Made by a program: the position numbers and the translations under genes. Shown one piece after another: positions 4,170-19,548 of a DNA stretch of 64,000 nucleotides. Location of the stretch: contig JAGWBB010000001.1 in assembly GCA_021296095.1 (NCBI GenBank), forward strand, positions 20,116 to 84,115, written 5' to 3'. Below the pieces are notes generated by a model that worked only from the letters and a program-made list of their open reading frames with translations, was not told the origin of the DNA and made no database searches. How positions within the stretch are numbered: position 1 is the first letter of the stretch; each line of letters begins with the position of its first letter. This stretch comes from Desulfurellaceae bacterium (GTDB taxonomy: Bacteria; Desulfobacterota; Binatia; Bin18).

Positions 4170-4778
4170 CTAGGCCTTGGCGCTGGGCCGTGCCGACACG
4201 GCTTCATGCCAGCGGGCCAGATTTTTCTGCTCCGGAGCAATGCCGATCTTCGACACCCGCCCGAAATCAACCGCGCACAGGGCGGTAATATCGGCCACGC
4301 TGAAGCGTTCGCCGGCGACAAACTGCCGGTCGGCCAGGACCTCATCGAGCCAGGCCAGATTTTGGACGGCCCGCCGCTTGGCCACCTCGGCATACTCTGG
4401 GCACTGCTCGATGCGACCCTTGAAAAACGCGTGGTGTTGACGGAACGAATCGGCAATCGGCAGCAGGAGTTCAAACTCCATGCGGCGGTCCCACATGGCC
4501 ACCACGGCCCGGTCGGTGGCATCAACGCCCAATAGCGGCGGCTCGGGCTGGATTTCTTCAAAATAGCGGCAGATGGCGGCGCTTTCTGCAATACAGGTGC
4601 CGTCGTCCAGCTCCAGCACCGGCACCGTGCCCATGGGGTTTTTCTGCCGGAACTCAGCCTGACGGTTGACCGCGTTCATAATATCAACTTCCTCGAACGG
4701 GACATCGAGCCCTTTTTCGGCCACAAAGATGCGGACCCGGCGCGGGTTGGGGGCGGCTTTGCTGTCGTGAACTTTCAT
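4170..4778 (-). CDS. glutathione S-transferase family protein
   Basis: GST N-terminal thioredoxin-like fold pattern 'RVRIFVAEKGLDVPFEEVDI...NPMGTVPVLELDDGTCIAES'; start set at MKVHDS, preceded by AAGGAGGA RBS. Confidence 0.75.
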   Translation of the reverse strand: MKVHDSKAAPNPRRVRIFVAEKGLDVPFEEVDIMNAVNRQAEFRQKNPMGTVPVLELDDGTCIAESAAICRYFEEIQPEPPLLGVDATDRAVVAMWDRRMEFELLLPIADSFRQHHAFFKGRIEQCPEYAEVAKRRAVQNLAWLDEVLADRQFVAGERFSVADITALCAVDFGRVSKIGIAPEQKNLARWHEAVSARPSAKA

Positions 4779-4903
4779 ACCATCCTCCTTGCTGAAGTCT
4801 GGGCTCAACCTATACCAGCCGATACACCGGAGCTAGACGGGCGGGCTGAGACCGCTTCCGACGGAGCCCGATGTAGGCTATGCTTCGCCCCAGGAGACAT
4901 CCT

Positions 4904-5965
4904 ATGCCCCTGCCCGACCCGATCCTGCAATCCGAAGCCTTTGAGTTGAGCGACGCCGTCCAGGTCAACGAGTTCTACCAAGACAAGGGCTGGACCGATG
5001 GCTTGCCTATTGTCCCGCCCACCGCCTACGGGGTAAGCGCCTGTCTGCGGGCGGCGGGACTCAGCCCAGACACGATCATCGGCATCGAACGCGTCCGGCA
5101 GCGGCCCCTGACGGCCGAAAAAGTGGCCATCAACGCCGTCATGGCGGGCTGTCTGCCCAGCTACATGCCGGTCCTGGTCGCCGTCCTGCAAGCCATGTGC
5201 GAGGAGCCGTTCAACCTGCACGGCAGCACGGCCAGTACCGGCGGCAGCGCCCAGTGCATTGTGGTCAACGGTCCCATCCGCCAGACCCTGGGCATGAACG
5301 CCACCCATAATGTGCTGAGCACCGGCAATCGGGCCAATGCGACGATTGGCCGGGCGGTGCGCCTGGTGCTGATCAATGTCCTGGGCTGCGTGCCCGGCCA
5401 GTTGGACCGCTCCACCCTGGGCCATCCGGGCAAGTATTCGCTGTGTCTCGCCGAAGACGAGGAGGACAGCCCGTGGCTGCCGCTGGCCCAACAGCGCGGC
5501 GTGGCCGAGGGCATGTCAGCCGTCACCGTCATGGCCTGCGAATCGCCCCGCCAGACCATGAACGAGTGGACCCACGACCCCGAGGAAATCGTCGAGACCT
5601 TTGCCGCTGAGATGCGTCACAATATGCTGACCTACTCGATCTGGCCGGGCAACTACGGGCTGGTCATTCCCAAACAGCTGCGCGAGTTGCTGGCTGCGGC
5701 CGGTTGGCAGAAACACGACATCCAGGAGTATGTGTACCGCCGCGCCCGGGTCAGGCGGAGCGACTGGGCCGGCGTCGGCAAGGCCGCTATCGTCAACCGG
5801 GGCGGCGGACCGGACCAGGAATTTTGCGCCTTGCGCACCCCAGAGGATCTGCTGGTGGTTGCCGCAGGCGGGCCGGCGGGCGGCTTTGGCGCGGTCGTGC
5901 CGCCCTGGCTGGGGTCCAAGGCGCTGGCGGTGACCAGGCCGGTCACACCGTCGGGAGGAGAATAG
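4904..5965 (+). CDS. conserved hypothetical protein (first gene of selenoprotein operon)
   Basis: Start set at MPLPDP with AGGAGA RBS 7 nt upstream; ends 5 nt before the selenoprotein gene; no family recognised by eye. Confidence 0.5.
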   Translation: MPLPDPILQSEAFELSDAVQVNEFYQDKGWTDGLPIVPPTAYGVSACLRAAGLSPDTIIGIERVRQRPLTAEKVAINAVMAGCLPSYMPVLVAVLQAMCEEPFNLHGSTASTGGSAQCIVVNGPIRQTLGMNATHNVLSTGNRANATIGRAVRLVLINVLGCVPGQLDRSTLGHPGKYSLCLAEDEEDSPWLPLAQQRGVAEGMSAVTVMACESPRQTMNEWTHDPEEIVETFAAEMRHNMLTYSIWPGNYGLVIPKQLRELLAAAGWQKHDIQEYVYRRARVRRSDWAGVGKAAIVNRGGGPDQEFCALRTPEDLLVVAAGGPAGGFGAVVPPWLGSKALAVTRPVTPSGGE

Positions 5966-5969
5966 GCGT

Positions 5970-6494
5970 ATGAGTATCCGCGTTCTGAGTCCGACCTTTG
6001 AGCAAGCCGTGGACCAAAACGGACGGGTGCCGCGTCTGACCTCGTTGCACGGCTGCACCCTGGGGCTGTTGGACAACAGCAAAATCAAAGTCCGCGAGCT
6101 GCTCGACCATGTGGAGGAGCTGCTGCGGACCGAGTATGGCGTGGCCCATGTCGTGCGGCTCAGAAAGCCCGACGCCAGCCGGCCCGCCCCCCCAGAGCTG
6201 GTGACCGAGATGGCGCGCTGTGAGGCCGTCATCTCGGCCGTCGGCGATTGAGGCAGCTGCTCGTCGTGCAGTTTGCACGACGCCCTGAGCGCTGAAAAAG
6301 CCGGCGTGGCGGCCACCGCCATCATCACCGACCGCTTTGTCCAAACCGCCCAGGTCATGGCCCGGGTTTCGGGCATGGCGGATTATCCGTTCGCCGTGAT
6401 TGCCCACCCGATCGCCAATAACAGCCAGACCGTGCTGCGCGACAAGGCCCAACAGGCGCTGCGCCAGTGTGTGGAGCAGCTGGTGCAGGGCTAG
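5970..6494 (+). CDS. UGSC-motif selenoprotein (in-frame UGA at 6249-6251 read as selenocysteine)
   Basis: ORFs 5970..6251 and 6273..6494 are in the same frame, separated only by TGA; readthrough gives '...AVISAVGD-U-GSCSSCSLHDAL...'; a SECIS-like hairpin lies immediately 3' of the TGA; GGGAGGAG RBS upstream of the 5970 ATG. Confidence 0.75.
6249..6282 (+). promoter_or_regulatory. Sec-UGA codon plus bacterial SECIS-like hairpin (CGTCGTGCA-GTT-TGCACGACG)
   Basis: Perfect 9-bp inverted repeat at 6262-6270/6274-6282, starting 11 nt after the UGA; the apical loop contains G-U; this geometry matches the bSECIS placement requirement. Confidence 0.6.
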
Positions 6495-7277: not shown

Positions 7278-7892
7278 ATGCACGGAGCCGGGGGAGTGGA
7301 AACCGTTGAAGCCCGGGTCGAGCGGCCAGACGCCGGGCAGCTGGAGCTGGAACACCGCTTCGGGCTGCTGGTCGGCTCCCATCGGGAACGCGCCAGACGC
7401 CTGGCTTGGCGGCTAGTCGGCGGCGACGCCGAGGCGGCCGAGGACATCACCCAGGACGCCTTTGTCAGGGCCTATCAGCGGCTTGGCACGTTTCGGCACC
7501 AGGCCCGCCTCGAGACCTGGTTTTATCGCATCCTGGTCCGCCAGGCTCAGACCTACCGTCGCTGGCGTGCGGTGCGCGACCGCTGGCAGCAGGTGTGGAA
7601 TCCGTCCGTCCCCGAACACGCTCCACAGCCGAGCGGGACGGCTCCGGAGGACACTGATCCTTTTGTCAGGCAACGCATAGCCGCAGCGCTGGAACATCTG
7701 AGCCGCAGTCAGCGCGAGGCGTTTGTCCTGGTCCATCTGGAAGGATTCACCGTTCGTGAATGTGCCGAGCTGATGGGCAAGCCCAGCGGGACGGTCAAGA
7801 GCCATCTGCACCGCGCCCTCGGCCGTTTACGGACCGAGCTGGCCGACCTCAGCCCGTTGGAGGCTGGGCCGGCCACGGAGCACGACCGATGA
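7278..7892 (+). CDS. RNA polymerase ECF-type sigma-70 factor
   Basis: Region 2 'AEDITQDAFVRAYQRL' and region 4 HTH 'LSRSQREAFVLVHLEGFTVRECAELMGKPSGTVKSHLHRALGRLR'. Confidence 0.85.
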   Translation: MHGAGGVETVEARVERPDAGQLELEHRFGLLVGSHRERARRLAWRLVGGDAEAAEDITQDAFVRAYQRLGTFRHQARLETWFYRILVRQAQTYRRWRAVRDRWQQVWNPSVPEHAPQPSGTAPEDTDPFVRQRIAAALEHLSRSQREAFVLVHLEGFTVRECAELMGKPSGTVKSHLHRALGRLRTELADLSPLEAGPATEHDR

Positions 7893-8332
7893 GTACAGCG
7901 TCCACACACCGGTCGCCCGGGCAGACAGACACGGAGTTTGTCACACGCCTGGCCGACCACTATGCCCCGCCCCCCCTCAGCCCAGGCCAGCGGGCCGCCT
8001 GGGACGCGAGGCTCGCCGCCCGGCTTGAAACGCGACGCCGGGCGGCGCTCCTTCCCGGGCTGGCAACGGCCGCGCTCGCCACCGCGCTGGTGTTCGGTCT
8101 GGGCGGGTGGTTTGGGTTTGAGTCGGGCGACCCGCCGGTCCGCCCTGCCCCGGTGGTGTCGGCCACACAAACGCGGACACTTGTCGTGTCTGCGGAAGAT
8201 TCGGTATCTGACCTCCCGGACGACTGGGAGTATCTGCTGGCCTTGCAGCCGGCCGACGAAGAAGAGGCTGAGCAGCCCGGGCTGCTACCGGACGACTATG
8301 CGGCGATCGCAAGCATTTTTTTGGAAAGCTGA
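7889..8332 (+). CDS. putative anti-sigma factor (single-pass membrane protein)
   Basis: ATGA start/stop overlap with the sigma gene; one hydrophobic helix 'LLPGLATAALATALVFGLGGWFGF'; positional logic for sigma/anti-sigma pairs. Confidence 0.55.
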   Translation: MSTASTHRSPGQTDTEFVTRLADHYAPPPLSPGQRAAWDARLAARLETRRRAALLPGLATAALATALVFGLGGWFGFESGDPPVRPAPVVSATQTRTLVVSAEDSVSDLPDDWEYLLALQPADEEEAEQPGLLPDDYAAIASIFLES

Positions 8333-8348
8333 AGTGAAAGGAGAGAAT

Positions 8349-8957
8349 ATGTATCGTGTTGTGTGTGTGTGCGTACTGCTGCTCGGGCTGAGTGTCCCCG
8401 AGGCCAGCGGCGAACAGCCGGGACGGTCTCGGCACGCCGGTCCTCCGGCCGCGCGTTTTATCGAAAAACACGCCGAGCAGCTCGGGATTGACGAAACCAC
8501 CCGGCAGGCCATCCAGAGCCTGGTCGAGGAGGCGCGGGCCAGGGGGCGGGAAATCCGCACTTCCCTGAAGCAGGCGCGGACCGAGATGCGCGGGCTGCTG
8601 GAGCAGGACAGCCCGGACGAAGCCGCGGTCATGCAGCACGCCGAACGGATCGGCGCGCTGCGAACCGAGATCCGCAAAAACCGCCTGCGGGCGATGTTGC
8701 AGATTCGGGCTCTACTCAGCTCGGAACAACGTCAAGCCCTGACCGCACTACGCCAGGAAAAACGCCCCGGTCGCCGGCGAGGGGGACGGTTTGGCGCGTG
8801 TCGGACCAATCTTGCCGAGCTGTGCCCCGAGGCCGGGCCGGGCCGGGCCTCGCTGCAATGTCTCAGCGACAACTGGGCTGCCCTGTCCCCGGGCTGTCAG
8901 GCCGTGTTTGAACGCGGCCGGCATCGGGGCAAACGCAGATCGGAACGGCCGGACTGA
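8349..8957 (+). CDS. periplasmic Spy/CpxP/ZraP-like (LTxxQ) protein with Cys-rich C-terminal domain
   Basis: GAAAGGAGAG RBS; signal-peptide-like N-terminus 'MYRVVCVCVLLLGLSVPEASG'; helical 'LTALRQE' LTxxQ-like repeats; C-terminal 'C...LC...C...C' cluster. Confidence 0.55.
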   Translation: MYRVVCVCVLLLGLSVPEASGEQPGRSRHAGPPAARFIEKHAEQLGIDETTRQAIQSLVEEARARGREIRTSLKQARTEMRGLLEQDSPDEAAVMQHAERIGALRTEIRKNRLRAMLQIRALLSSEQRQALTALRQEKRPGRRRGGRFGACRTNLAELCPEAGPGRASLQCLSDNWAALSPGCQAVFERGRHRGKRRSERPD

Positions 8958-8968
8958 GCCGCGCCAGC

Positions 8969-10450
8969 CTATTGCCCGGACTGCTCCGGCGGCGTAGCGG
9001 ACGACGCGGTGTGGCGGCCGGCCGTCCCGGACGGATTGGTATAGATATCGTTGAGCTGTTGGACGCAGCGGTCGGCCTCGGCCCGGACCTTATCGACGGT
9101 CGCCCGGGTCTGGGCATTCCAGGTCGCCGGTTCGGTGCGAAAAATACTCCGATACCAGCGCGTGCTGTGCTGAAAGGCCTCGACCAGATTGTCTACATGC
9201 TGGTCGGCCTGGTCTCGACGCAAGGCGGTGATGATCCGCTCACGCACCCGGCGGCGAACCTGCCAGTGTCCATAACCGGCCACGACAGCCACCACACCCA
9301 GGCCCCCGCCCCCCAGGCCGAGGAGCAGCTCGCCAAGGCCGAACCAAGCCAGCAGCCCGAGCAAGACCAGCCCCCCTCCGAGCAGTAACCCGTCCCGCCA
9401 CACGACCCCTGTCCGCCAGCCGCGCAGCATGGCCCGCAATTGGGGAATCAGCTGTCGCTCCAGCTCGTTCGCCGAGCGCTCCAGGGTTCCCACCACACGG
9501 TAGGCCTGGGCGGTCCGCACCTGCTGAATACGGGCCTGGATTTCGGCGTGGTCGTGTTCGCGCAGCGCCTCGTACCGGGCCCGGACCTGGGGGTCGGCAA
9601 TCGGGGGCGCCGCCGAGCGGCTGTAGGTGTGATAAAAACGCCCGGCGGTCAGGCCCTTCTGGGCCAGGCCGCGCTGCCAGGCGGCCACCACCTGTTCGGC
9701 GTTGTCATCCTGGGCGGTCGCATCCAGGTGGTTCAGTATGTACAGAAATTTGCTGGAATCCGCCCGCCGGATCGTCTTCTCGACCAGATGCTCAAGCGTA
9801 TCCCGCATCGAGCCCGCTTCTGGGTGGCGGGCATCAAAAAAAACCAGCACCAGGTCGGACAGGGCGACGATGTGGTCGGTCAGACGCAGCACCGCGGTGC
9901 GTTGCTCGTCCGCGTCAAAGCCGGGGCTGTCAATAAAAATCCGGCCCCGAACCACCTGGCTGGGGCAGGTTTTGAGCTGGAGATAGGCGTCCATGCGCTC
10001 GCCCTCGCCCGGTGCCGAGGCCTCAAGCTCGCGGCTGATTTTGTAAAACGGGAAGCGTGGGTCGGCGTCCAGCGCCAGGGCTGGGAGCGCCCGGACCTGG
10101 GCGTCCTGGCCGTAACACACGACGGTAAACTTGTCGTCAACAGCCTGGTTGCCGGTCAGCTGTAAGGGATAGTCGAGATAGTCGTTGAGGAAGGTCGATT
10201 TACCGGCCGAATACGTCCCCAGAACAGCGATGATCGGCCACCACGGCACCTGACGGGTGTAGGACTCGGCGGGCGAGAAAAATCCCAGCCGGCGGGCGAC
10301 GCCATCCAGTTTGCGCAGGCCGGCCACCACGGCCAGAAAGACCGCTCCCTCCTCTTCCAGTTCGTTCTGGATATGTGTCTCAAGAGCCGCCTCAAGACGG
10401 TCCGGGTGAGCGGTCTTGCGTCCAAACAGCACGCGGGCTTCCCCTGCCAC
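8969..10450 (-). CDS. dynamin-like / HSR1-type GTPase with C-terminal transmembrane segment
   Basis: G1 'GTYSAGKST', G3 'DSPGF', G4 'NHLD'; hydrophobic stretch 'LLLGGGLVLLGLLAWFG'; start placed at an in-frame GTG downstream of the RND stop (the ORF-track start at 10612 would overlap the RND gene by ~100 nt). Confidence 0.5.
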   Translation of the reverse strand: MAGEARVLFGRKTAHPDRLEAALETHIQNELEEEGAVFLAVVAGLRKLDGVARRLGFFSPAESYTRQVPWWPIIAVLGTYSAGKSTFLNDYLDYPLQLTGNQAVDDKFTVVCYGQDAQVRALPALALDADPRFPFYKISRELEASAPGEGERMDAYLQLKTCPSQVVRGRIFIDSPGFDADEQRTAVLRLTDHIVALSDLVLVFFDARHPEAGSMRDTLEHLVEKTIRRADSSKFLYILNHLDATAQDDNAEQVVAAWQRGLAQKGLTAGRFYHTYSRSAAPPIADPQVRARYEALREHDHAEIQARIQQVRTAQAYRVVGTLERSANELERQLIPQLRAMLRGWRTGVVWRDGLLLGGGLVLLGLLAWFGLGELLLGLGGGGLGVVAVVAGYGHWQVRRRVRERIITALRRDQADQHVDNLVEAFQHSTRWYRSIFRTEPATWNAQTRATVDKVRAEADRCVQQLNDIYTNPSGTAGRHTASSATPPEQSGQ

Positions 10451-12933: not shown

Positions 12934-13132
12934 GGCACGCTTCCTCCTGGCTGGTGTCGCTCAGCCCGCGGCCCTGACCATCCCATCCAAACCAAACCGC
13001 GTCAAGCACCGTTCAGGGTCGGCCCGCAACACGGGAGCGATCACGCCGAAGACCGCTGCCGCCTTGCAAAGCCCACAGCCAGGCTCTAGTCTCGGCAGAG
13101 ACGGTGTCACGGCGCAAAAATGGGGATCAGCT

Positions 13133-13741
13133 ATGTCACAGGCAATAGCACAGACGGTCTTGAATGTTCCGTTTCGGCTCAAGGTCGAGGCGGCTCGGTT
13201 GACCGAGCAGCAGTTCGTCGAGCTGTGCCGGGAGAACCGGGATTTGCGGTTTGAGCTGACTGCCGACAAGGAGCTGGTCATCATGGCGCCAACGGGCTCA
13301 GAAACCGGCCGGCAGAACAGTGAAATTGCCTACACGCTGACGGCTTGGGCCAAGCGAGATGGAACCGGACTGTCGTTTGACTCTTCGACCGGCTTTCGCC
13401 TGCCGAACGGGGCCATCCGCTCACCGGATGCCGCCTGGGTCAGGCGAGAGAGCTGGCACGCCCTCAGCCCGGAGCAGAGACGAGGCTTTGCTCCCCTGTG
13501 CCCGGATTTTGTGCTGGAACTGCGCTCGCCGAGCGATCAGCTGTCAGCCTTACAGGACAAGATGCAGGAGTATATCGACAACGGCGCGCGCCTGGCCTGG
13601 CTGCTCGATCCGTCAGAAAAACGGGCGTATATCTATCGGCCCGGGCGACCGGTCGAACGGCGCGACGGTCCGCCCACGCTTCGCGGCGACCCGGTGCTGC
13701 CGGGCTTCGTGCTGCGCCTGGACGTGCTGAACTTGTCCTGA
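13133..13741 (+). CDS. Uma2-family (DUF820) PD-(D/E)xK endonuclease
   Basis: Family-typical sequence 'FRLKVEAARLTEQQFVELCRENRDLRFELTADKELVIMAPTGSETGRQNSEI...PDFVLELRSPSD'; trimmed to the ATG at 13133. Confidence 0.7.
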   Translation: MSQAIAQTVLNVPFRLKVEAARLTEQQFVELCRENRDLRFELTADKELVIMAPTGSETGRQNSEIAYTLTAWAKRDGTGLSFDSSTGFRLPNGAIRSPDAAWVRRESWHALSPEQRRGFAPLCPDFVLELRSPSDQLSALQDKMQEYIDNGARLAWLLDPSEKRAYIYRPGRPVERRDGPPTLRGDPVLPGFVLRLDVLNLS

Positions 13742-13787
13742 ACGAACCCTGACGAAGCCGGCTGGCAGTCATTTGATGTGGATGGGA

Positions 13788-14285
13788 TCAATCCGGTTTT
13801 CGGCATACGTTTCTTCTCAACAGTTCTCGATGGCTACGACGGAACTTCGTATTATCCAGTGCCTGAGGAGCGTTTTTATCCCTACGCGTCGTATAGACTC
13901 TTCCCTGCGGATTTTCGATTAATTTTCTATCTCTGAAATCGTCGCCGAGATCTCGGTCGTTAGAATATAATAGCCGAGCTCCGCTGACTTGGGCTAAGGC
14001 AAGAATATGAGGATCGTCTGACCTAATTGCCCCCTCGCGTTCGATTTGCCGTGTTCTCGTCTCAACTTCTCTCTCATTCACGGTTATCATTTTTCCAGCA
14101 AGCTGGGCCGCCACCCCCCAGCGTCTGAAGTCTGGCGAAGTCTCTTCAAGCTCCTTGAGCAATTTGCCGCCAACAATCAGCCTGCCCCCTCCACTTTCGA
14201 GCCACTCATAGAACTTCTCTGCTGGAGGTGATGGGCTATCTCCGAACACCTCGTGAGCCACGTTGACGTCAACAATTGCGCACAT
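13788..14285 (-). CDS. PIN-domain-like putative nuclease (partner of upstream ATPase)
   Basis: N-terminal 'AIVDVNV' and later acidic residues ('ELEET', 'SDDPH', 'SNDRDL') fit a PIN catalytic quartet; lies in the low-GC island 23 nt downstream of the ATPase. Confidence 0.45.
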   Translation of the reverse strand: MCAIVDVNVAHEVFGDSPSPPAEKFYEWLESGGGRLIVGGKLLKELEETSPDFRRWGVAAQLAGKMITVNEREVETRTRQIEREGAIRSDDPHILALAQVSGARLLYSNDRDLGDDFRDRKLIENPQGRVYTTRRDKNAPQALDNTKFRRSHRELLRRNVCRKPD

Positions 14286-14308
14286 TCTTCTTCAGGTCCA
14301 TGCGGATT

Positions 14309-15667
14309 TCATCTCTTCCATAAAGACCTTCGCATTTCTTCCATGAAGAACTGTCGGTAGCCTGGCGGGGCGTCCAAGACGTTTCCCTGTTCGTCAAATC
14401 GTAACGAATGAATGTGAACGTCCAGGTCCTCACGTTCAAAGTACAAGACGGAAACGTCCTCGGGCTTCAATTTCGTCTCTTCGTCGCGTACGTCCATACG
14501 CACTCGGTCCAGCAAGTGGTCGCTGTGTGTTTCGACTATCAATTGACGCTCCGGTCCGGCGACCTGGCAGAATAAGCTTCCAAGAGCGGCTTGGGCGCTG
14601 GGGTGAAGATGCACTTCTGGTTGCTGCAACAGAAACAGGGACGGCGCCTCTCGGCTCAGCAATTCGGTTATTACGGGTAGCACCTGACTGACGCCATAGC
14701 CGACATCAACGAGGTTGCGCTGAGGACCTTTTAGTCGGCGGCCAAACTTTCTGACCTGCACTTGGAAAGGTTCGCTATCTTTTTTCCCGAGTGGCCTAAT
14801 AGAGATTTCATCGAAAAGACCTGCATCTCGCCCGAAGTTCTCAAGCGCTTTTCTCAGTCTGGCCCACCCGTTCTGGTCGCTGAAGTACATGTTGGCGAGA
14901 TACATGGGAACGAAAACGCCTTCGGCATCCCGGATCAGACGAGTAGGGTCGTAGGTTCGGCGCGGGTAGGAGCGGACGGGTGCGCTGGCATAAGGTGGCG
15001 TCTCTTCGCGATAGCGATAACTGTCCCGGTCGAGAGTGAGGTTCAGTTGTTCGATGAGGTCAAAATCTTCATCGGTAGGCGAACTGGAGCCTTGTGGTGT
15101 GATTAGCTCTATATTTCTCCGATCTATGAACTCCTTCAATATCCGTGGAATAGAGAAAAAAACTGAAATCCGGTCGTCATAGGCATCTAATCGGACACGA
15201 CGAATATAGGGCGTCTTCAACCTCCAAGCGCCCCGTGGCGTCCCAAAGCTGACCTGACAGTGGTAGTTTCTCTCGAAAAGAACCTCGATCCAGCCACCTT
15301 CACGGGCAAGCCGTGCTCCCACAGGGATCGGCGCAGTCCCCGTCTTTCCGAAAGTCACCTCGAAACAATAGGACTGACCGTTGGGTTTCAGGCTTGGGGA
15401 AACGTTGAAGCCCGCCTCGAAGGTCTTAGCTCGGCCTCCTCTTGCGCCCCGGTGGTGGACGATCTCCTCATAACTTCCAAGATCATAGGGCTCTTCTTTA
15501 AAGTCTGGAATCTCATGCTCGTAAGCAATGTCCCACAGCGCCCGGATCAGCGCCATGAATGAGGTCTTGCCGGTGCTGTTCTCACCGACGAGCAGGGTCA
15601 GCGGAGCCAAATGGGCGGTCTGCCTCTCCCGGAAACAACGGAAATTTTCGAGTGTGATACTGTCCAT
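14309..15667 (-). CDS. AAA_21/OLD-type ABC ATPase (PtuA/AriA/GajA-N-like), no fused nuclease domain
   Basis: N-terminus 'MDSITLENFRCFRE...LTLLVGENSTGKTSF' (Walker A); C-terminal Walker B/D-loop 'LFLLQQPEVHLHP' and H-loop 'IVETHSDHLL'; GGAGAC RBS; ORF start trimmed from 15808 to the Met at 15667. Confidence 0.7.
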   Translation of the reverse strand: MDSITLENFRCFRERQTAHLAPLTLLVGENSTGKTSFMALIRALWDIAYEHEIPDFKEEPYDLGSYEEIVHHRGARGGRAKTFEAGFNVSPSLKPNGQSYCFEVTFGKTGTAPIPVGARLAREGGWIEVLFERNYHCQVSFGTPRGAWRLKTPYIRRVRLDAYDDRISVFFSIPRILKEFIDRRNIELITPQGSSSPTDEDFDLIEQLNLTLDRDSYRYREETPPYASAPVRSYPRRTYDPTRLIRDAEGVFVPMYLANMYFSDQNGWARLRKALENFGRDAGLFDEISIRPLGKKDSEPFQVQVRKFGRRLKGPQRNLVDVGYGVSQVLPVITELLSREAPSLFLLQQPEVHLHPSAQAALGSLFCQVAGPERQLIVETHSDHLLDRVRMDVRDEETKLKPEDVSVLYFEREDLDVHIHSLRFDEQGNVLDAPPGYRQFFMEEMRRSLWKR

Positions 15668-15842
15668 GACAGTGTCTCCATTCTTCGCCTCAACACCGAC
15701 AACAGCATAATAGCGGGCAGGCACTGCTCGTTGCACCCATGAGGACAAGGAGCCGAAGAACGTCGGCAAGTAGCAGAAAGTCCGTGATGTGATCCTGTTC
15801 GATGCCAATCAGCGCACACAATGCGTCGGCACGACCACCAGA

Positions 15843-16454
15843 CTAACGCTCCAGCTCGGTGTTCCAGTACGCCGCGTCGACCTCGCTCAGATACGGCAGC
15901 CACTCCCGGTAGCGCTTGAAGCTGAAGGTCTCGATCATGAACGGCGTCCACTCCGGCTGAACGGGCTTCTCGATCAGCCGCATGTGGGTCTCTTCGAGCA
16001 GCAGACCGCCTTTCTTGCGGTTGCAGGCAAAACACGAGCACACCACGTTGTCCCAGCCCGAGGTACCGCCCTTGGAGCGTGGAACGACATGGTCGAGGTT
16101 CAGCTCCGAGCGCGGCAGGCGCCGGCCGCAGTACTGACAGGTGTTCTTGTCGCGGGCAAAGACGTTGAAGCGCGAGAAACGCACCCGCCGCTTCGGCACC
16201 CGGTCGTAGGCAACCAGCAGGATGACGCGTGGGACCTTGATGGCTTGGCCGACCAGACCGATGGTTTCGTCGTTCAAGGATGCCGACAGGGCGCTCCAGC
16301 TGTTGAAATCGAAGGTCTGGTACTGATCATCAACGGCTTTGGCCACCCCCTGGTAGAGCAGGGAAAACGCGCGCCGCAGCGAGGTGACGTGGACAGGAAA
16401 GTAGGATCGGTTGAGCACCAGCACCTTGGTATTGAGTACACTCATGGCTGCCAT
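15843..16454 (-). CDS. HNH endonuclease (McrA-like, COG1403)
   Basis: 'CQYCGRR...LDHVVPRSKGG...NVVCSCFACNRKKG' HNH/zinc-finger motifs; N-terminal 'VLVLNRSYFPVHV' family-typical. Confidence 0.8.
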   Translation of the reverse strand: MAAMSVLNTKVLVLNRSYFPVHVTSLRRAFSLLYQGVAKAVDDQYQTFDFNSWSALSASLNDETIGLVGQAIKVPRVILLVAYDRVPKRRVRFSRFNVFARDKNTCQYCGRRLPRSELNLDHVVPRSKGGTSGWDNVVCSCFACNRKKGGLLLEETHMRLIEKPVQPEWTPFMIETFSFKRYREWLPYLSEVDAAYWNTELER

Positions 16455-16653
16455 GTCTTTCCCGAACGAGCCGTCTTTTCACGGCTCGTAAGTCCCTGAC
16501 GAACAAGAATTTTTCCCGCCACCGTAGCCGGAGGCCGGTGGGCTGTCAAGATTTTGGGGCCGGGCCGACCGGGCAAGAGAGACGAAAAATTCATGCCGGG
16601 CCGACCGTCGCCGGGCGCCGCTGGCCTTCACACTGGCGCCCGGCGGCTTCCTT

Positions 16654-19548
16654 GTGTATAGTTGCGTCTGTAAAGGCGACACCGTGAAGACATCCAGCCA
16701 TCTCCGAGATGCGTATGCCGATCTCCTGCCCCTGGTCAGCCAGCCGGCCCGCTATACCGGCGGAGAACGAGGGACGGTCGTCAAAGATTCGGCCCAGGTT
16801 CGGCTGCGTTTCGCCCTGGCTTTCCCGGAAGTCTACGAGGTGGCCCAGTCCCACCTCGGGCTCCAGATTCTGTACAACCTGCTGAACGAGCGTCCGCACC
16901 TGCAGGCCGAACGGGTATATGCACCGTGGGTGGATATGGAAGCCGCGCTGCGCCAGCGGGGACTGCCGCTCGTCTCGCTTGAGACCTATACCCCGCTGTC
17001 GGCCTTCGACATTGTCGGCTTCAGCCTCCAGTACGAACTGACGTATACCAACATCCTGATGATGCTGGACCTGGGCGGGATTCCGCTCCTGTCTGAGGAC
17101 CGGGACGAAACCCATCCGCTGATTATTGCCGGCGGACCGTGCGCCTTTCACCCCGAGCCGCTTGCCGCGTGCATCGACGCGTTTCTGCTGGGCGACGGAG
17201 AGGAAGCGATCTTTGATATCTGTGAGACGTATCTGGCCTGGGACGGGACAAACCGGACGGATCTGCTGACCGCCCTGAGCCGTATTCCCGGCGTCTACGT
17301 ACCGGCGTTTTTTCGGCCCGCCTACAACCAGGACGGTACGCTCAGCGACATTGCCGCCCAGTTCCCCGACCGGCCGCTCGTCCACAAGCGCGTTGTCACC
17401 GACCTCAACTCCATCCCCCAGCTCACCCGGCAGGTCGTGCCCAACGTCAACATCGTCCATGACCGGATTGCGGTCGAGGTCATGCGCGGCTGCGTGCGCG
17501 GCTGTCGTTTCTGTCAGGCCGGCTATATTTACCGTCCCCTGCGTGAGCGCGACCCGCGCGCCCTGCAGCAGCAGATCGACACCCTGGTCGAAGACAGCGG
17601 CTATGAAGAGGTCTCGCTGCTCAGCCTCAGTACCGGCGATTACAGCTGTGTGAACCCGCTGCTGCGCGAGATCATGAATCGCTTTTCTGGCCTCAAGGTG
17701 TCGGTGTCGCTGCCGTCTACCCGGGTTGACGCCCTCTCGCCGCATATCCTGGAAGAGATCCGCCGGGTGCGCAAAACCGGCTTTACCCTGGCCCCGGAAG
17801 CCGGCACTCAGCGGATGCGCGATGTCATCCAGAAAGAGTACAAAGAGGAGGAGTTGCTGGAGGCCGCCCGGGTGTTGTTCGGCCTCGGCTGGAAAAGCGT
17901 CAAACTCTACTTCATGCTCGGCCTGCCGGGCGAAACCGAAGAAGACCTGCGCGGCATTATCGACCTGAGCCGCAAGGTCTCGGCCGTGGGCAAACACCGC
18001 CGCCAGGTCACCGCCAGCGTCTCGACCTTTGTGCCCAAGCCGCATACCCCGTTCCAGTGGGCGGGCCAAGTCAGTCTGGAGGAAACTGAGGCGCGCCAGC
18101 AGCTGCTGCGCCGCGAACTGCGGCGGGCCGGCATTCAGTTCAAGTGGCACGAGGCCCGGCTGTCGTGGCTGGAGGGCGTGTTTGCACGGGGCGACCGAAG
18201 GCTGACCGGCCCCCTGATCAGCGCCTACCGGCTGGGCTGCCGGTTTGACGGCTGGACCGATCAGTTTCGGCTCGACCTGTGGCAGCAGGCTTTTGCCCAG
18301 CACGGTGTGGACCCGGACTGGTATCTGCGCCGGCGTCTTCTGGACGAAAGCCTGGCCTGGGATCACCTCGACAGCGGGGTGACCAAGAAATGGCTGCAAC
18401 GCGATCTGGCCAAGGCGTTTGAAGGCACGCTGACCCCGGATTGCAGCGTTGAGCGCTGCTCGTACTGCGGGGCGTGCGATTTTCAGACCGTCCGCAATGT
18501 GACCTACCATCTGAGTGGGGCAAAAGGGGCCGAACATCGCGGGCCGGACGTTGACGGCTGGGCCAGACGGGTGTTGCCGGAGCACAGCTTGTGGGGCACC
18601 CGGCAGTGGCAGGCGATGCAGGAGAAGCGGGCGGACACAGGGGAAAAGTCAAAGGGCAAAGGGCAGAGGGCAAAGGGCAAAGGGCCCTCCCTCAGCCCCC
18701 AGGGTGCAGGGCCGGTTTCAGACTCTCCCGTTCCCAGCGGCAATGCCGAGGAATGGCTGGCCGGCGATCCCAACACCATCGCGGTCAGCCAGGGCGACCA
18801 CAAGGCTGGCGTGGTGCGTATCCGGGTCGCCTACAGCCGGCTTGAGGAGGCCCGCTTTCTGGGTGCGCGGGAACTCATCACTGTGCTGACCCGGGCAGCC
18901 CGGCGGGCCAAACTGCCCGTCGCCTACAGCCAGGGCTTCCACCCCAGCCCACGGATGAGCTTTGGCCCTGCCCTGCCGCTCGGGATGGAGAGCGAGGAAG
19001 AGTTCTTTGATATTGTCCTGACCGAGGCGCTCGCTCCGGGCCAGCTGGCCGAACGACTACACACCCAGCTGCCGGCTGGCCTGGCTATTCAGCGGGCCGA
19101 AGCCATCGCCCTGAAGGCACCGAGTATCGAAGCCCGCATACAGGCCAGCCGCTACCGGGTGACACTCGACTCGCTGCCCGCCGACAAACGGACCGCCGCG
19201 TTCTGGACCCGGTGTTTCAACCGGTTTGCCGCCGCCCCGAGCTTTCCGCTTCAGAAACGCAACCGCCGGGGCGTCAAAACCCTGGACGCCAAGCGCTGCG
19301 TCCGCCAGCTCAGGCTGAGCACGCCCCACGCGCTGAGCCTTGAGATCGCCGTCACCCCAAAGGGAACACTCAATCCTCAGGAATTTCTCCGCGCCCTGGC
19401 AGACTTATCCGAGGAAGAGGCAAAAATCCTGCGGGTGACAAAAATTCAGACCGTATTTCATGCCCCCGTGGAGGTGGCAGTAGACCCGACAGAAGCGGAG
19501 CGGCCGCCAGCCTCGCCCACGCCGCCGGCTTCTGCACGAAATGGATAG
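16654..19548 (+). CDS. B12-binding-like radical SAM protein (TIGR03960-like) fused to DUF2344 (TIGR03936-like) domain
   Basis: 'MRGCVRGCRFCQAGYIYRP' radical SAM Cys triad; Lys/Gly-rich linker then a C-terminal ~200-aa domain; adjacent to RNase E/G; the true start may be the GTG at 16684 (VKTSSHL). Confidence 0.8.
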   Translation: MYSCVCKGDTVKTSSHLRDAYADLLPLVSQPARYTGGERGTVVKDSAQVRLRFALAFPEVYEVAQSHLGLQILYNLLNERPHLQAERVYAPWVDMEAALRQRGLPLVSLETYTPLSAFDIVGFSLQYELTYTNILMMLDLGGIPLLSEDRDETHPLIIAGGPCAFHPEPLAACIDAFLLGDGEEAIFDICETYLAWDGTNRTDLLTALSRIPGVYVPAFFRPAYNQDGTLSDIAAQFPDRPLVHKRVVTDLNSIPQLTRQVVPNVNIVHDRIAVEVMRGCVRGCRFCQAGYIYRPLRERDPRALQQQIDTLVEDSGYEEVSLLSLSTGDYSCVNPLLREIMNRFSGLKVSVSLPSTRVDALSPHILEEIRRVRKTGFTLAPEAGTQRMRDVIQKEYKEEELLEAARVLFGLGWKSVKLYFMLGLPGETEEDLRGIIDLSRKVSAVGKHRRQVTASVSTFVPKPHTPFQWAGQVSLEETEARQQLLRRELRRAGIQFKWHEARLSWLEGVFARGDRRLTGPLISAYRLGCRFDGWTDQFRLDLWQQAFAQHGVDPDWYLRRRLLDESLAWDHLDSGVTKKWLQRDLAKAFEGTLTPDCSVERCSYCGACDFQTVRNVTYHLSGAKGAEHRGPDVDGWARRVLPEHSLWGTRQWQAMQEKRADTGEKSKGKGQRAKGKGPSLSPQGAGPVSDSPVPSGNAEEWLAGDPNTIAVSQGDHKAGVVRIRVAYSRLEEARFLGARELITVLTRAARRAKLPVAYSQGFHPSPRMSFGPALPLGMESEEEFFDIVLTEALAPGQLAERLHTQLPAGLAIQRAEAIALKAPSIEARIQASRYRVTLDSLPADKRTAAFWTRCFNRFAAAPSFPLQKRNRRGVKTLDAKRCVRQLRLSTPHALSLEIAVTPKGTLNPQEFLRALADLSEEEAKILRVTKIQTVFHAPVEVAVDPTEAERPPASPTPPASARNG

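Follow-up and report, generated by a model that had tools for sequence, protein, structure and literature searches.

A two-gene ABC ATPase and PIN cassette in a Desulfurellaceae bacterium, a candidate distant relative of the HEC-03 defence system

The locus and its two proteins

The window studied here, the whole 64,000-nucleotide stretch of DNA from a Desulfurellaceae bacterium, carries on its minus strand two co-directional open reading frames (ORFs), the first for an ATPase of the ATP-binding cassette (ABC) group and the second for a small PIN-domain protein. The initial annotation had described two genes 23 nucleotides apart, encoding 452 and 165 residues; the ORFs confirm this, and the motifs that it quoted are all present. 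It had also proposed that a pairing of this ATPase with a PIN protein belongs to no named system. As far as detection goes this is correct, since the PADLOC models were run and no system calls the pair. The architecture itself has a precedent, however: Hma-embedded candidate 03 (HEC-03), from Pseudomonas cichorii, is a two-gene system of an ABC ATPase and a PIN protein (Payne et al. 2024, bioRxiv 10.1101/2024.01.29.577857), and its ATPase is homologous to the one in the window. It is reasonably probable, in our view, that these two genes form an anti-phage module of the HEC-03 type that is self-contained and moves horizontally, and in which a PIN RNase acts under the control of the ATPase. The main features of the locus are the following.

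14309..15667, minus strand: ABC ATPase gene, 452 residues, of the OLD/NsnB/HEC-03 clade (AAA_15/AAA_21 with a DUF3696-like C-terminal tail), from the ORF, Pfam, PADLOC and homology
13788..14285, minus strand: PIN-domain protein gene, 165 residues, VapC-like, a predicted RNase effector, from Pfam, an AlphaFold2 model and Foldseek
14286..14308, minus strand: intergenic spacer of exactly 23 nucleotides, implying an operon (10-30 nucleotides in 79/81 loci)
15668..15842, minus strand: 5' leader of the ATPase gene, with a GGAGA ribosome-binding site at 15675-15679; replaced together with the 5' part of the ATPase gene in the allele of the syntenic relative L001

The longest ORF of the ATPase gene (14309-15808) opens with TTG and would encode 499 residues. 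We discarded this version because the homologues all begin with MD.ITL and the GGAGA site lies 8 nucleotides upstream of the ATG at 15667, which is the start used here. Over 452 residues the resulting product matches the database protein P0001, 'AAA family ATPase [Desulfurellaceae bacterium]', with 100% identity. No Rfam family matched positions 13000-16700, and a promoter and terminator scan with a simple sigma-70 model, which is not informative for this phylum, returned sites no commoner than in shuffled sequence.

The ATPase matches Pfam AAA_15 (1e-21) and AAA_21 (4e-19), and among the PADLOC models it is best recognised by NsnB (161 bits), followed by PDC-M55A (115), the HEC-03 ATPase (101) and AriA (84). 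Weaker PADLOC matches to PtuA, GajA and Old all fall on the N-terminal P-loop, as do the NCBIfam matches, which are sub-threshold (PtuA, 31 bits against a cut-off of 500). The N-terminus also weakly matches RecF/SMC_N, and against the PDB the family profile finds distant relatives only (OLD 6p74, GajA and PtuA). Together, the Pfam, PADLOC and PDB profile matches bear out the earlier assignment to the ABC group of OLD, AriA, PtuA and GajA. A literature search gave no publication for PDC-M55. At the C-terminus, Pfam DUF3696 scores 21.1 bits, just under its cut-off of 22 bits, and the domain is called in the homologues P0062, P0067 and P0096. The motifs and regions below are all on the minus strand, and conservation of the motifs was judged on two sets, of 26 and 63 ATPase family members.

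15560..15586: Walker A motif, G28-ENSTGKT-S36 (GENSTGKTS), invariant or near-invariant in both sets
14993..15427: hypervariable insert cassette, residues 81-225, predicted sensor or specificity region, from pairwise identity and mosaicism
14969..14983: 'APVRS' motif, residues 229-233, with an invariant R232, conserved in both sets
14684..14701: 'GYGVSQ' signature motif, with GxG in place of the ABC SGG, conserved in both sets
14600..14638: atypical Walker B, 'LFLLQQPEVHLHP' ('LLQQPEVHLHP'), with Gln-Gln where OLD and GajA have Glu-Glu; QQPE invariant
14516..14533: H-loop region, 'ETHSDH', conserved in both sets
14312..14470: C-terminal DUF3696-like tail, residues 400-452, putative docking site for the PIN protein, from the sub-threshold Pfam match, the homologues and the analogy with Menshen

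The position of R232 would correspond to the Q-loop by analogy only. The QQPE of the Walker B region is invariant in the 63 ATPase members and is retained in the distant relatives L084-L086 on viral contigs; in the profile alignment its counterpart in OLD 6p74 and GajA is the 'EEPE' of Walker B. Across the clade the dyad is QQ in this family, EQ in HEC-03, EN in NsnB and EE in OLD and GajA. An ABC ATPase whose catalytic Glu is mutated to Gln is trapped with ATP bound. Since the QQ dyad is universal in the family, the ATPase probably binds ATP with little or no hydrolysis and works as a switch or clamp.

The small protein scores 26 bits on Pfam PIN (PF01850), above the cut-off of 23.6. Its acidic tetrad D6-E45-D91-D110 (plus D116) is intact, is 98-100% conserved in 66 sequences and is also conserved in 64 diverse representatives. 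The AlphaFold2 model is of good quality, with a predicted local distance difference test score (pLDDT) of 84 and a predicted template-modelling score of 0.80, and its top Foldseek matches in the PDB are the VapC toxins 3zvk, 7vwo, 5x3t and 5ecw (probability 0.99-1.0, template-modelling scores 0.45-0.58). At the level of sequence profiles no match of the family to VapC chains was detected (best E 0.45). These data support the view, already put forward in the initial annotation, that the acidic residues of the small protein are those of a PIN nuclease; it is of the VapC-like kind and looks catalytically active.

Composition and spread of the pair

The ATPase-PIN module is compositionally foreign. 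Its GC content is 52.9% against 62.7% for the whole window, with a lowest 400-nucleotide stretch of 50.5%, and it is the GC-poorest 1.9-kb stretch of the 64 kb (z = -4.4). The drop is therefore real, although milder than the roughly 45-52% against 65% first estimated by eye. GC at third codon positions (GC3) is 0.49 in the PIN gene and 0.60 in the ATPase gene, against 0.75-0.83 in six flanking genes, and the codon-usage distance of the module genes to host genes is 2-3 times that of their neighbours; the windowed GC and codon-usage checks thus sustain the proposal of a foreign, low-GC island. Moreover, module GC lies below that of the flanks in 59/59 other host loci, by 8.4 points on average, and correlates weakly with host GC (r = 0.33).

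Relatives were sought in one genome per GTDB species, which yielded more than 546 ATPase relatives. The best 80 of them, at 55-70% identity, are spread over more than 10 phylum- or class-level lineages, among them Binatia, Latescibacterota, Nitrospirales, Nitrospinota, Gemmatimonadota, Dehalococcoidia and other Chloroflexota, Alphaproteobacteria, Gammaproteobacteria, Entotheonella, Acidimicrobiales, Rhodothermales, Bryobacterales and Spirochaetia. Gene neighbourhoods were counted in 81 module loci. A PIN homologue lies 10-30 nucleotides downstream of the ATPase gene in 79 of them, and no third conserved gene was found, no other gene occurring in more than 11 loci, in agreement with an island of exactly two genes. 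For the PIN family, clustering at 50% identity gives 1,887 clusters at E<=1e-3 and 1,297 at the stricter E<=1e-10. A family of at least 1,297 PIN clusters (50% identity), present in more than 546 GTDB species of mostly uncultured lineages, is missed by current defence-finder models. Taken together, the module behaves as a mobile two-gene cassette.

The host metagenome-assembled genomes (MAGs) often look sponge-associated by name (Entotheonella, Candidatus Spongiisociaceae, Latescibacterota), and we take the bins named SB, RHO and APA to come from sponge studies. The 55-70% identity across phyla suggests a gene pool shared within such sponge-type communities. In a few genomes the module is apparently decaying: in L055 (7366-8013) the downstream ORF opens as a PIN gene (MCAIIDANVAHEVFG) before diverging through what looks like a frameshift, L015 (6001-7335) is without an intact ATPase ORF, and L052 and L035 (about 7400-7880) give partial PIN matches only.

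A tblastn search of annotated plasmid and phage collections with the PIN protein gave no match (72,556 plasmid records). In PHROGs the PIN protein has no family and the ATPase matches only phrogs of unknown function. An exact empty site was sought through the HNH gene upstream of the module: 44 HNH-anchored metagenome loci are without the module, two of which keep the radical-SAM-HNH synteny. Because the relatives that keep this synteny are also without the downstream Uma2 and MMPL genes, the exact insertion boundaries are not definable.

This distribution bears on the idea that the pair is a native housekeeping unit for RNA processing or repair, formed by a RecF/SMC-like ATPase and a PIN RNase. 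The weak RecF/SMC_N matches at the N-terminus are in line with it, as is the RNase E/G gene that the window holds among the neighbouring genes. However, a native pair fits poorly with the foreign composition and codon usage, with a patchy distribution across phyla at 55-70% identity, with the absence of the module from the nearest HNH-anchored relatives, with the hypervariable insert described below and with the multiple divergent copies in some MAGs. We regard this explanation as highly improbable.

Two further genes flank the module.

15843-16454, minus strand: HNH gene, 203 residues, upstream and co-directional, ending 175 nucleotides before the ATPase start
13130-13741, plus strand: putative endonuclease gene of the Uma2 family (Pfam 6e-42), convergent with the PIN gene

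Both accompany the module in three syntenic relatives only (L001, L003 and L035). The HNH protein has an IscB/Cas9-like HNH domain (NCBIfam IscB, 52 bits, under the cut-off), and in the near relatives L001, L082, L089 and L092 its gene adjoins a radical-SAM/DUF2344 gene. The Uma2 gene, which also matches the PADLOC single-gene candidate PDC-S03 (E 6e-8), is kept at the same position in the syntenic relatives with 77-95% identity, and may be a separate defence or mobile gene.

The HNH gene could be taken as a PtuB-like nuclease partner, which would make the locus a three-gene unit resembling Septu. Indeed, it is co-directional, lies only 175 nucleotides upstream, shows weak matches to PtuB (E 7e-8) and precedes an ATPase whose N-terminus is matched by PtuA models. 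Nevertheless, its GC3 of 0.83 is host-like, it stays 99-100% conserved in relatives with a swapped ATPase, and it occurs beside the module in only the three syntenic relatives among 80 module loci, while being found without the module in 44 other loci and having more than 576 relatives in metagenomes. A Septu-like unit is in our opinion barely conceivable, and these patterns place the HNH and Uma2 genes outside the module.

The exchangeable insert, the defence context and a proposed mechanism

The ATPase is divided into a conserved core and a hypervariable insert. Residues 81-225 have a mean pairwise identity of 26%, against 68-77% for the rest of the ATPase and 53% for the PIN protein; the insert falls below 30% identity in 83% of pairs, whereas the core, at 74% identity, is never under 62%. 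In the AlphaFold2 model of the ATPase, which is of low confidence overall, the insert is beta-rich and has the best local pLDDT. The family also contains mosaics: L010 and L019 share 91% of the core and 81% of the PIN protein and only 29% of the insert, and the L010 insert has 68% identity to its counterpart in L005, a member with a more distant core.

A similar picture is found between syntenic relatives of the window. In L001 the flanks and the PIN protein are 97-100% identical to those of the window (the PIN gene 99.6% at the DNA level), whereas the ATPase is only 63% identical. Divergence is highest in the insert and the 5' leader, which is unalignable, and decays towards the 3' end, and L003 shows the same pattern of replacement. 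The insert cannot be aligned at the DNA level with that of either relative despite flanks that are 95-99% identical. More broadly, window positions 14285-15880 and L001 positions 4460-5980 (with L003 and L035) hold same-site ATPase alleles that are 59-65% identical, in genomes that are otherwise 95-100% identical, and the replacement extends over the 5' leader and most of the ATPase gene, ending within the conserved 3' part of that gene. Because divergence peaks in the insert and leader and decays in the 3' direction between near-identical flanks, the pattern indicates allelic replacement by recombination and not drift in place. We count the hypervariable insert and the exchange of cassettes, which together resemble the signature of an arms race, in favour of an anti-phage module. 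In addition, some genomes hold two paralogous modules: L030 and L038 lie in one MAG (CAZURU01) and share 86% of the core, 50% of the insert and 68% of the PIN protein, while P0025 and P0066 are encoded on one chromosome of 4,895,696 bp.

The genomic context points in the same direction. In at least eight loci PADLOC identifies the genes on either side of the pair as HmaB (374 bits) and HmaC (316 bits), and these embedded pairs are often beside HEC-01A/B (395 and 216 bits). HEC-03 itself was discovered through embedding of this kind. Such placement within Hma systems makes a defence role likely; of the initial suggestion of a defence or toxin module, it is the defence half that gains from this embedding, the function being one that we infer. 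In L006, L014, L024 and others (about 7850-9800), a HEC-01-type pair (AAA_21 ATPase and DUF4276) stands directly beside the module, so that two distinct ABC-ATPase/nuclease cassettes are stacked in one Hma embedding site.

Distant relatives also occur on viral contigs. L086 (4998-6919; IMGVR_UViG_2548876984_000004) is a low-GC member whose ATPase and PIN genes overlap by 1 nucleotide; the ATPase is 33% identical and keeps QQPE and GYGVSQ, and the PIN protein begins MCIVVDTN. One flank adjoins an SPP1-type portal gene (PF05133, 7.5e-24). On the other flank the label of terminase is tentative because the match (Terminase_6N, 20.4 bits) is under the Pfam cut-off of 22. The position resembles a moron-like cargo site. 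In L087 (4962-7414; IMGVR_UViG_3300047320_000250), the gene of an 'EQPE'-type ATPase resembling that of HEC-03 overlaps the next gene, which encodes a 306-residue protein without a Pfam match; this protein may serve the ATPase clade as another effector partner, NsnC-like or otherwise.

Could the pair instead be a selfish toxin-antitoxin (TA) or addiction module that stabilises itself or its carrier DNA, with the VapC-like PIN protein as the toxin and the ATPase as a protein antitoxin? Some features would suit it: the PIN fold matches the VapC toxins of type II TA systems, the operon is compact, has two genes and is horizontally spread, Pfam describes AAA_21 as 'putative AbiEii toxin, Type IV TA system', and most loci have no obvious defence island. 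However, the large ATPase comes first and the small PIN protein second, and an ATPase of 452 residues is unlike the VapB antitoxins. Similarly, a hypervariable, recombining insert would suit an arms-race sensor but not an antitoxin, the pair sits within Hma systems beside HEC-01, and the PIN protein was not found in the 72,556 plasmid records. Finally, the HEC-03 ATPase is required for defence and does not merely neutralise its partner. We therefore think a TA module unlikely, and the four rival explanations weighed in this work (TA module, Menshen remnant, Septu with HNH, and housekeeping pair) are each less likely than a defence module.

For the HEC-03-type defence module that we favour, we propose the following mechanism. 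By analogy with GajA, AriA and NsnB, the ATPase would probably form a dimer or tetramer, and the ATP-loaded oligomer would dock the VapC-like PIN RNase through the DUF3696-like tail. The beta-rich insert at residues 81-225 is likely to be the sensor of a phage-derived trigger, upon which the PIN protein would be released or activated. It would then cleave host and/or phage RNA (tRNA, rRNA or mRNA), and this cleavage would stop the infection by abortive infection or growth arrest. The defence function, the DUF3696-mediated complex, the insert as sensor, the RNA target and the lack of ATP hydrolysis are all what we infer. One observation agrees with the docking step: the C-terminal segment of the ATPase tracks the divergence of the PIN protein best (rho 0.51, against 0.28 for the insert), and this covariation fits a DUF3696-PIN interface as predicted for NsnB and NsnC.

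Several points weigh against this proposal. About 85% of the loci lie outside recognisable defence islands, as judged within 6 kb on either side by coarse clustering of neighbours. The physical adjacency of the two parts could by itself yield both the rho of 0.51 and the co-inheritance seen in L001. The QQ Walker B could mean that the ATPase is a non-enzymatic scaffold regulated unlike known systems. As to the fold of the insert and the oligomeric state, the AlphaFold2 model of the ATPase, built with 26 close homologues, has a mean pLDDT of 56; it is too poor for a fold search, and its structural use is therefore limited to secondary structure. Likewise, the true P. cichorii HEC-03 ATPase scores 765 bits, even truncated, on the HEC-03 ATPase model that gives the window ATPase 101 bits, the window PIN protein has no match at E<=10 to the HEC-03 PIN model PDLC04147, and with a shallow profile (A2) the hhalign probability between the two PIN proteins is only 7%.

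It is tempting to go one step further and speculate that the ATPase is a non-hydrolysing, ATP-loaded receptor, that its insert of about 140 residues is a phage-binding, exchangeable specificity module, and that genomes retarget one PIN effector through recombination of the insert and multiple paralogues. We put this forward tentatively, as a possible but doubtful extension. If true, it would amount to an innate immunity with a modular repertoire of receptors, spread by horizontal transfer through sponge-symbiont communities. The family offers natural experiments on phage sensing, with a universal QQ Walker B and a delimited insert that is swapped while the PIN effector stays the same. In particular, the alleles of the window and L001, with near-identical PIN proteins and different inserts, are a ready-made pair for the question of insert specificity. 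The interest of the family lies chiefly in this QQ Walker B, in the recombining specificity cassette and in the size of a family that has gone unannotated.

Relation to HEC-03, Menshen and other known systems

HEC-03 consists of a 461-residue 'DUF3696 domain-containing protein' (WP_025259138) and a 157-residue PIN protein (WP_025259137) (bioRxiv 10.1101/2024.01.29.577857, Supplementary Table 2), and both genes of the P. cichorii system are required for phage defence in E. coli (bioRxiv 10.1101/2024.01.29.577857). The window ATPase is 24% identical to the HEC-03 ATPase over its full length (BLASTP E 8e-20), and the two rank the second-tier PADLOC models alike (NsnB > PDC-M55A > AriA). The HEC-03 ATPase model, PDLC04148, covers only the C-terminal part of the window ATPase (101 bits, E 1.9e-29) and is outscored there by the NsnB and PDC-M55A models. 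The names in PADLOC-DB v2.0.0 are the inverse of those in the preprint: 'HEC-03A' is the PIN model PDLC04147 (159 positions) and 'HEC-03B' the ATPase model PDLC04148 (458 positions), whereas the preprint calls the ATPase HEC-03A and the PIN protein HEC-03B.

For the PIN proteins the link is more distant. Among 64 diverse family members none matches PDLC04147, on which the true HEC-03 PIN protein scores 284 bits, and the PIN protein of L086, tried as a bridge to the HEC-03 PIN family, did not provide the link. With the deeper profile A4, built from PIN representatives at 50% identity, hhalign gives a probability of 80% (E 1.5e-5) over 113 collinear columns with the catalytic residues matched, the alignment being collinear from residue 1 to the D110 motif. 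This is suggestive, and the PIN protein is probably, though not provably, related to that of HEC-03.

The resemblance between the two systems extends to their layout and motifs. In both the ATPase comes first and the PIN protein second, with similar sizes (461 and 157 residues in HEC-03, 452 and 165 here). Both ATPases have a GxGVSQ signature (GFGVSQ in HEC-03), an xQPExHLHP Walker B region, ExHSxH and a DUF3696-type tail, and the Arg motif 'GPLRE' of HEC-03 would correspond to 'APVRS' here, its placement at the Q-loop resting on analogy only. Both PIN proteins are VapC-like and both pairs are embedded in Hma systems. In contrast, the Walker B dyad is EQ in HEC-03 and QQ here, and HEC-03 is found in Pseudomonas and Burkholderia whereas the present family occupies high-GC, uncultured lineages that look largely sponge-associated. 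The Cys and His residues of the PIN proteins differ as well: the HEC-03 PIN family conserves C23, C27, C150 and H153 (with a 'CPxHGC' tail), while here C2 and C161, outside the active site, are invariant. In both families these extra residues may be metal or disulphide sites. Defined by architecture, as a DUF3696-type ABC ATPase with an adjacent PIN protein and no other conserved gene, HEC-03 would take in 79 of the 81 loci. On these comparisons, the pair represents in our reading a distant sister family of HEC-03 that shares its architecture, within the DUF3696-type ABC clade that includes Menshen NsnB.

Menshen (NsnA-NsnB-NsnC; Millman et al. 2022) is the second known system that goes against the initial claim of an unnamed pairing, as its NsnB, an ATPase from the same clade, is coupled with a PIN-like domain (PMC12065111). 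NsnB departs from canonical ABC ATPases by a Q-to-R change in the Q-loop, by SGG-to-GxG and by a Walker B region without the catalytic Glu (Li et al. 2025, PMC12065111), and its DUF3696 is predicted to bind the PIN-like N-terminal domain of NsnC (PMC12065111). The window ATPase shows NsnB-type features, with NsnB as its best PADLOC match, GYGVSQ, QQPE and a DUF3696-like tail; the GxG change and the loss of the catalytic Glu are seen in it directly, and its partner likewise has a PIN fold. The pair does not belong to Menshen, as the locus has no NsnA (ParB-DUF262 and ParBDB) upstream; its neighbours in the window are HNH and Uma2, and conservation of an upstream gene is not seen across the 81 loci. 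The partner here is a standalone PIN protein of 165 residues with an intact D-E-D-D, whereas NsnC is an inactive PIN fused to a C-terminal toxin domain, and variability resides in the ATPase insert here and in NsnA-N or NsnC there.

One could ask whether the pair is a degenerate or minimal Menshen, reduced to NsnB and a truncated NsnC after loss of NsnA and of the C-terminal effector domain. The NsnB score of 161 bits would agree with this, as would the shared GxG change and DUF3696-like tail, the Arg of 'APVRS' (at the Q-loop by analogy only) and the PIN-like N-terminus of NsnC. Yet these NsnB-type features mark the clade and not Menshen, because the true HEC-03 ATPase has them too and scores 177 bits on the NsnB model. 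Moreover, the PIN-like domains of NsnC are without catalytic residues (PMC12065111), whereas D-E-D-D is at least 98% conserved here, and no DUF262/NsnA-like or other third gene is conserved in the 81 loci. Nor is the pair a sporadic remnant, because it is stable over more than 10 phylum- or class-level lineages and at least 1,297 PIN clusters. An origin as a Menshen remnant is very improbable.

Compared with PARIS (AriA-AriB), Septu (PtuA-PtuB), Gabija (GajA-GajB) and OLD, the sister family of HEC-03 shares OLD-type ABC heads (AAA_15/AAA_21) that regulate a bound or fused nuclease, and the logic of a sensor ATPase restraining an effector is likely to be common to all. In contrast, the effector is a Toprim or HNH nuclease there and a predicted PIN RNase here, no Toprim or DUF4435 domain was found in the ATPase, the PIN protein or the conserved neighbours, and the similarity is confined to the Walker A and Walker B regions (E 1e-9 to 1e-3). 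With VapBC type II TA systems the pair shares the effector fold and the catalytic tetrad of the VapC toxins; unlike them, it has no VapB-like antitoxin, its partner being a 452-residue ABC ATPase encoded upstream. What is known, then, is the architecture of an ATPase with a PIN protein, and what is new is a divergent family that current PADLOC models do not recognise. With this family included, the HEC-03/Menshen clade of DUF3696-type ABC ATPase systems would become larger.

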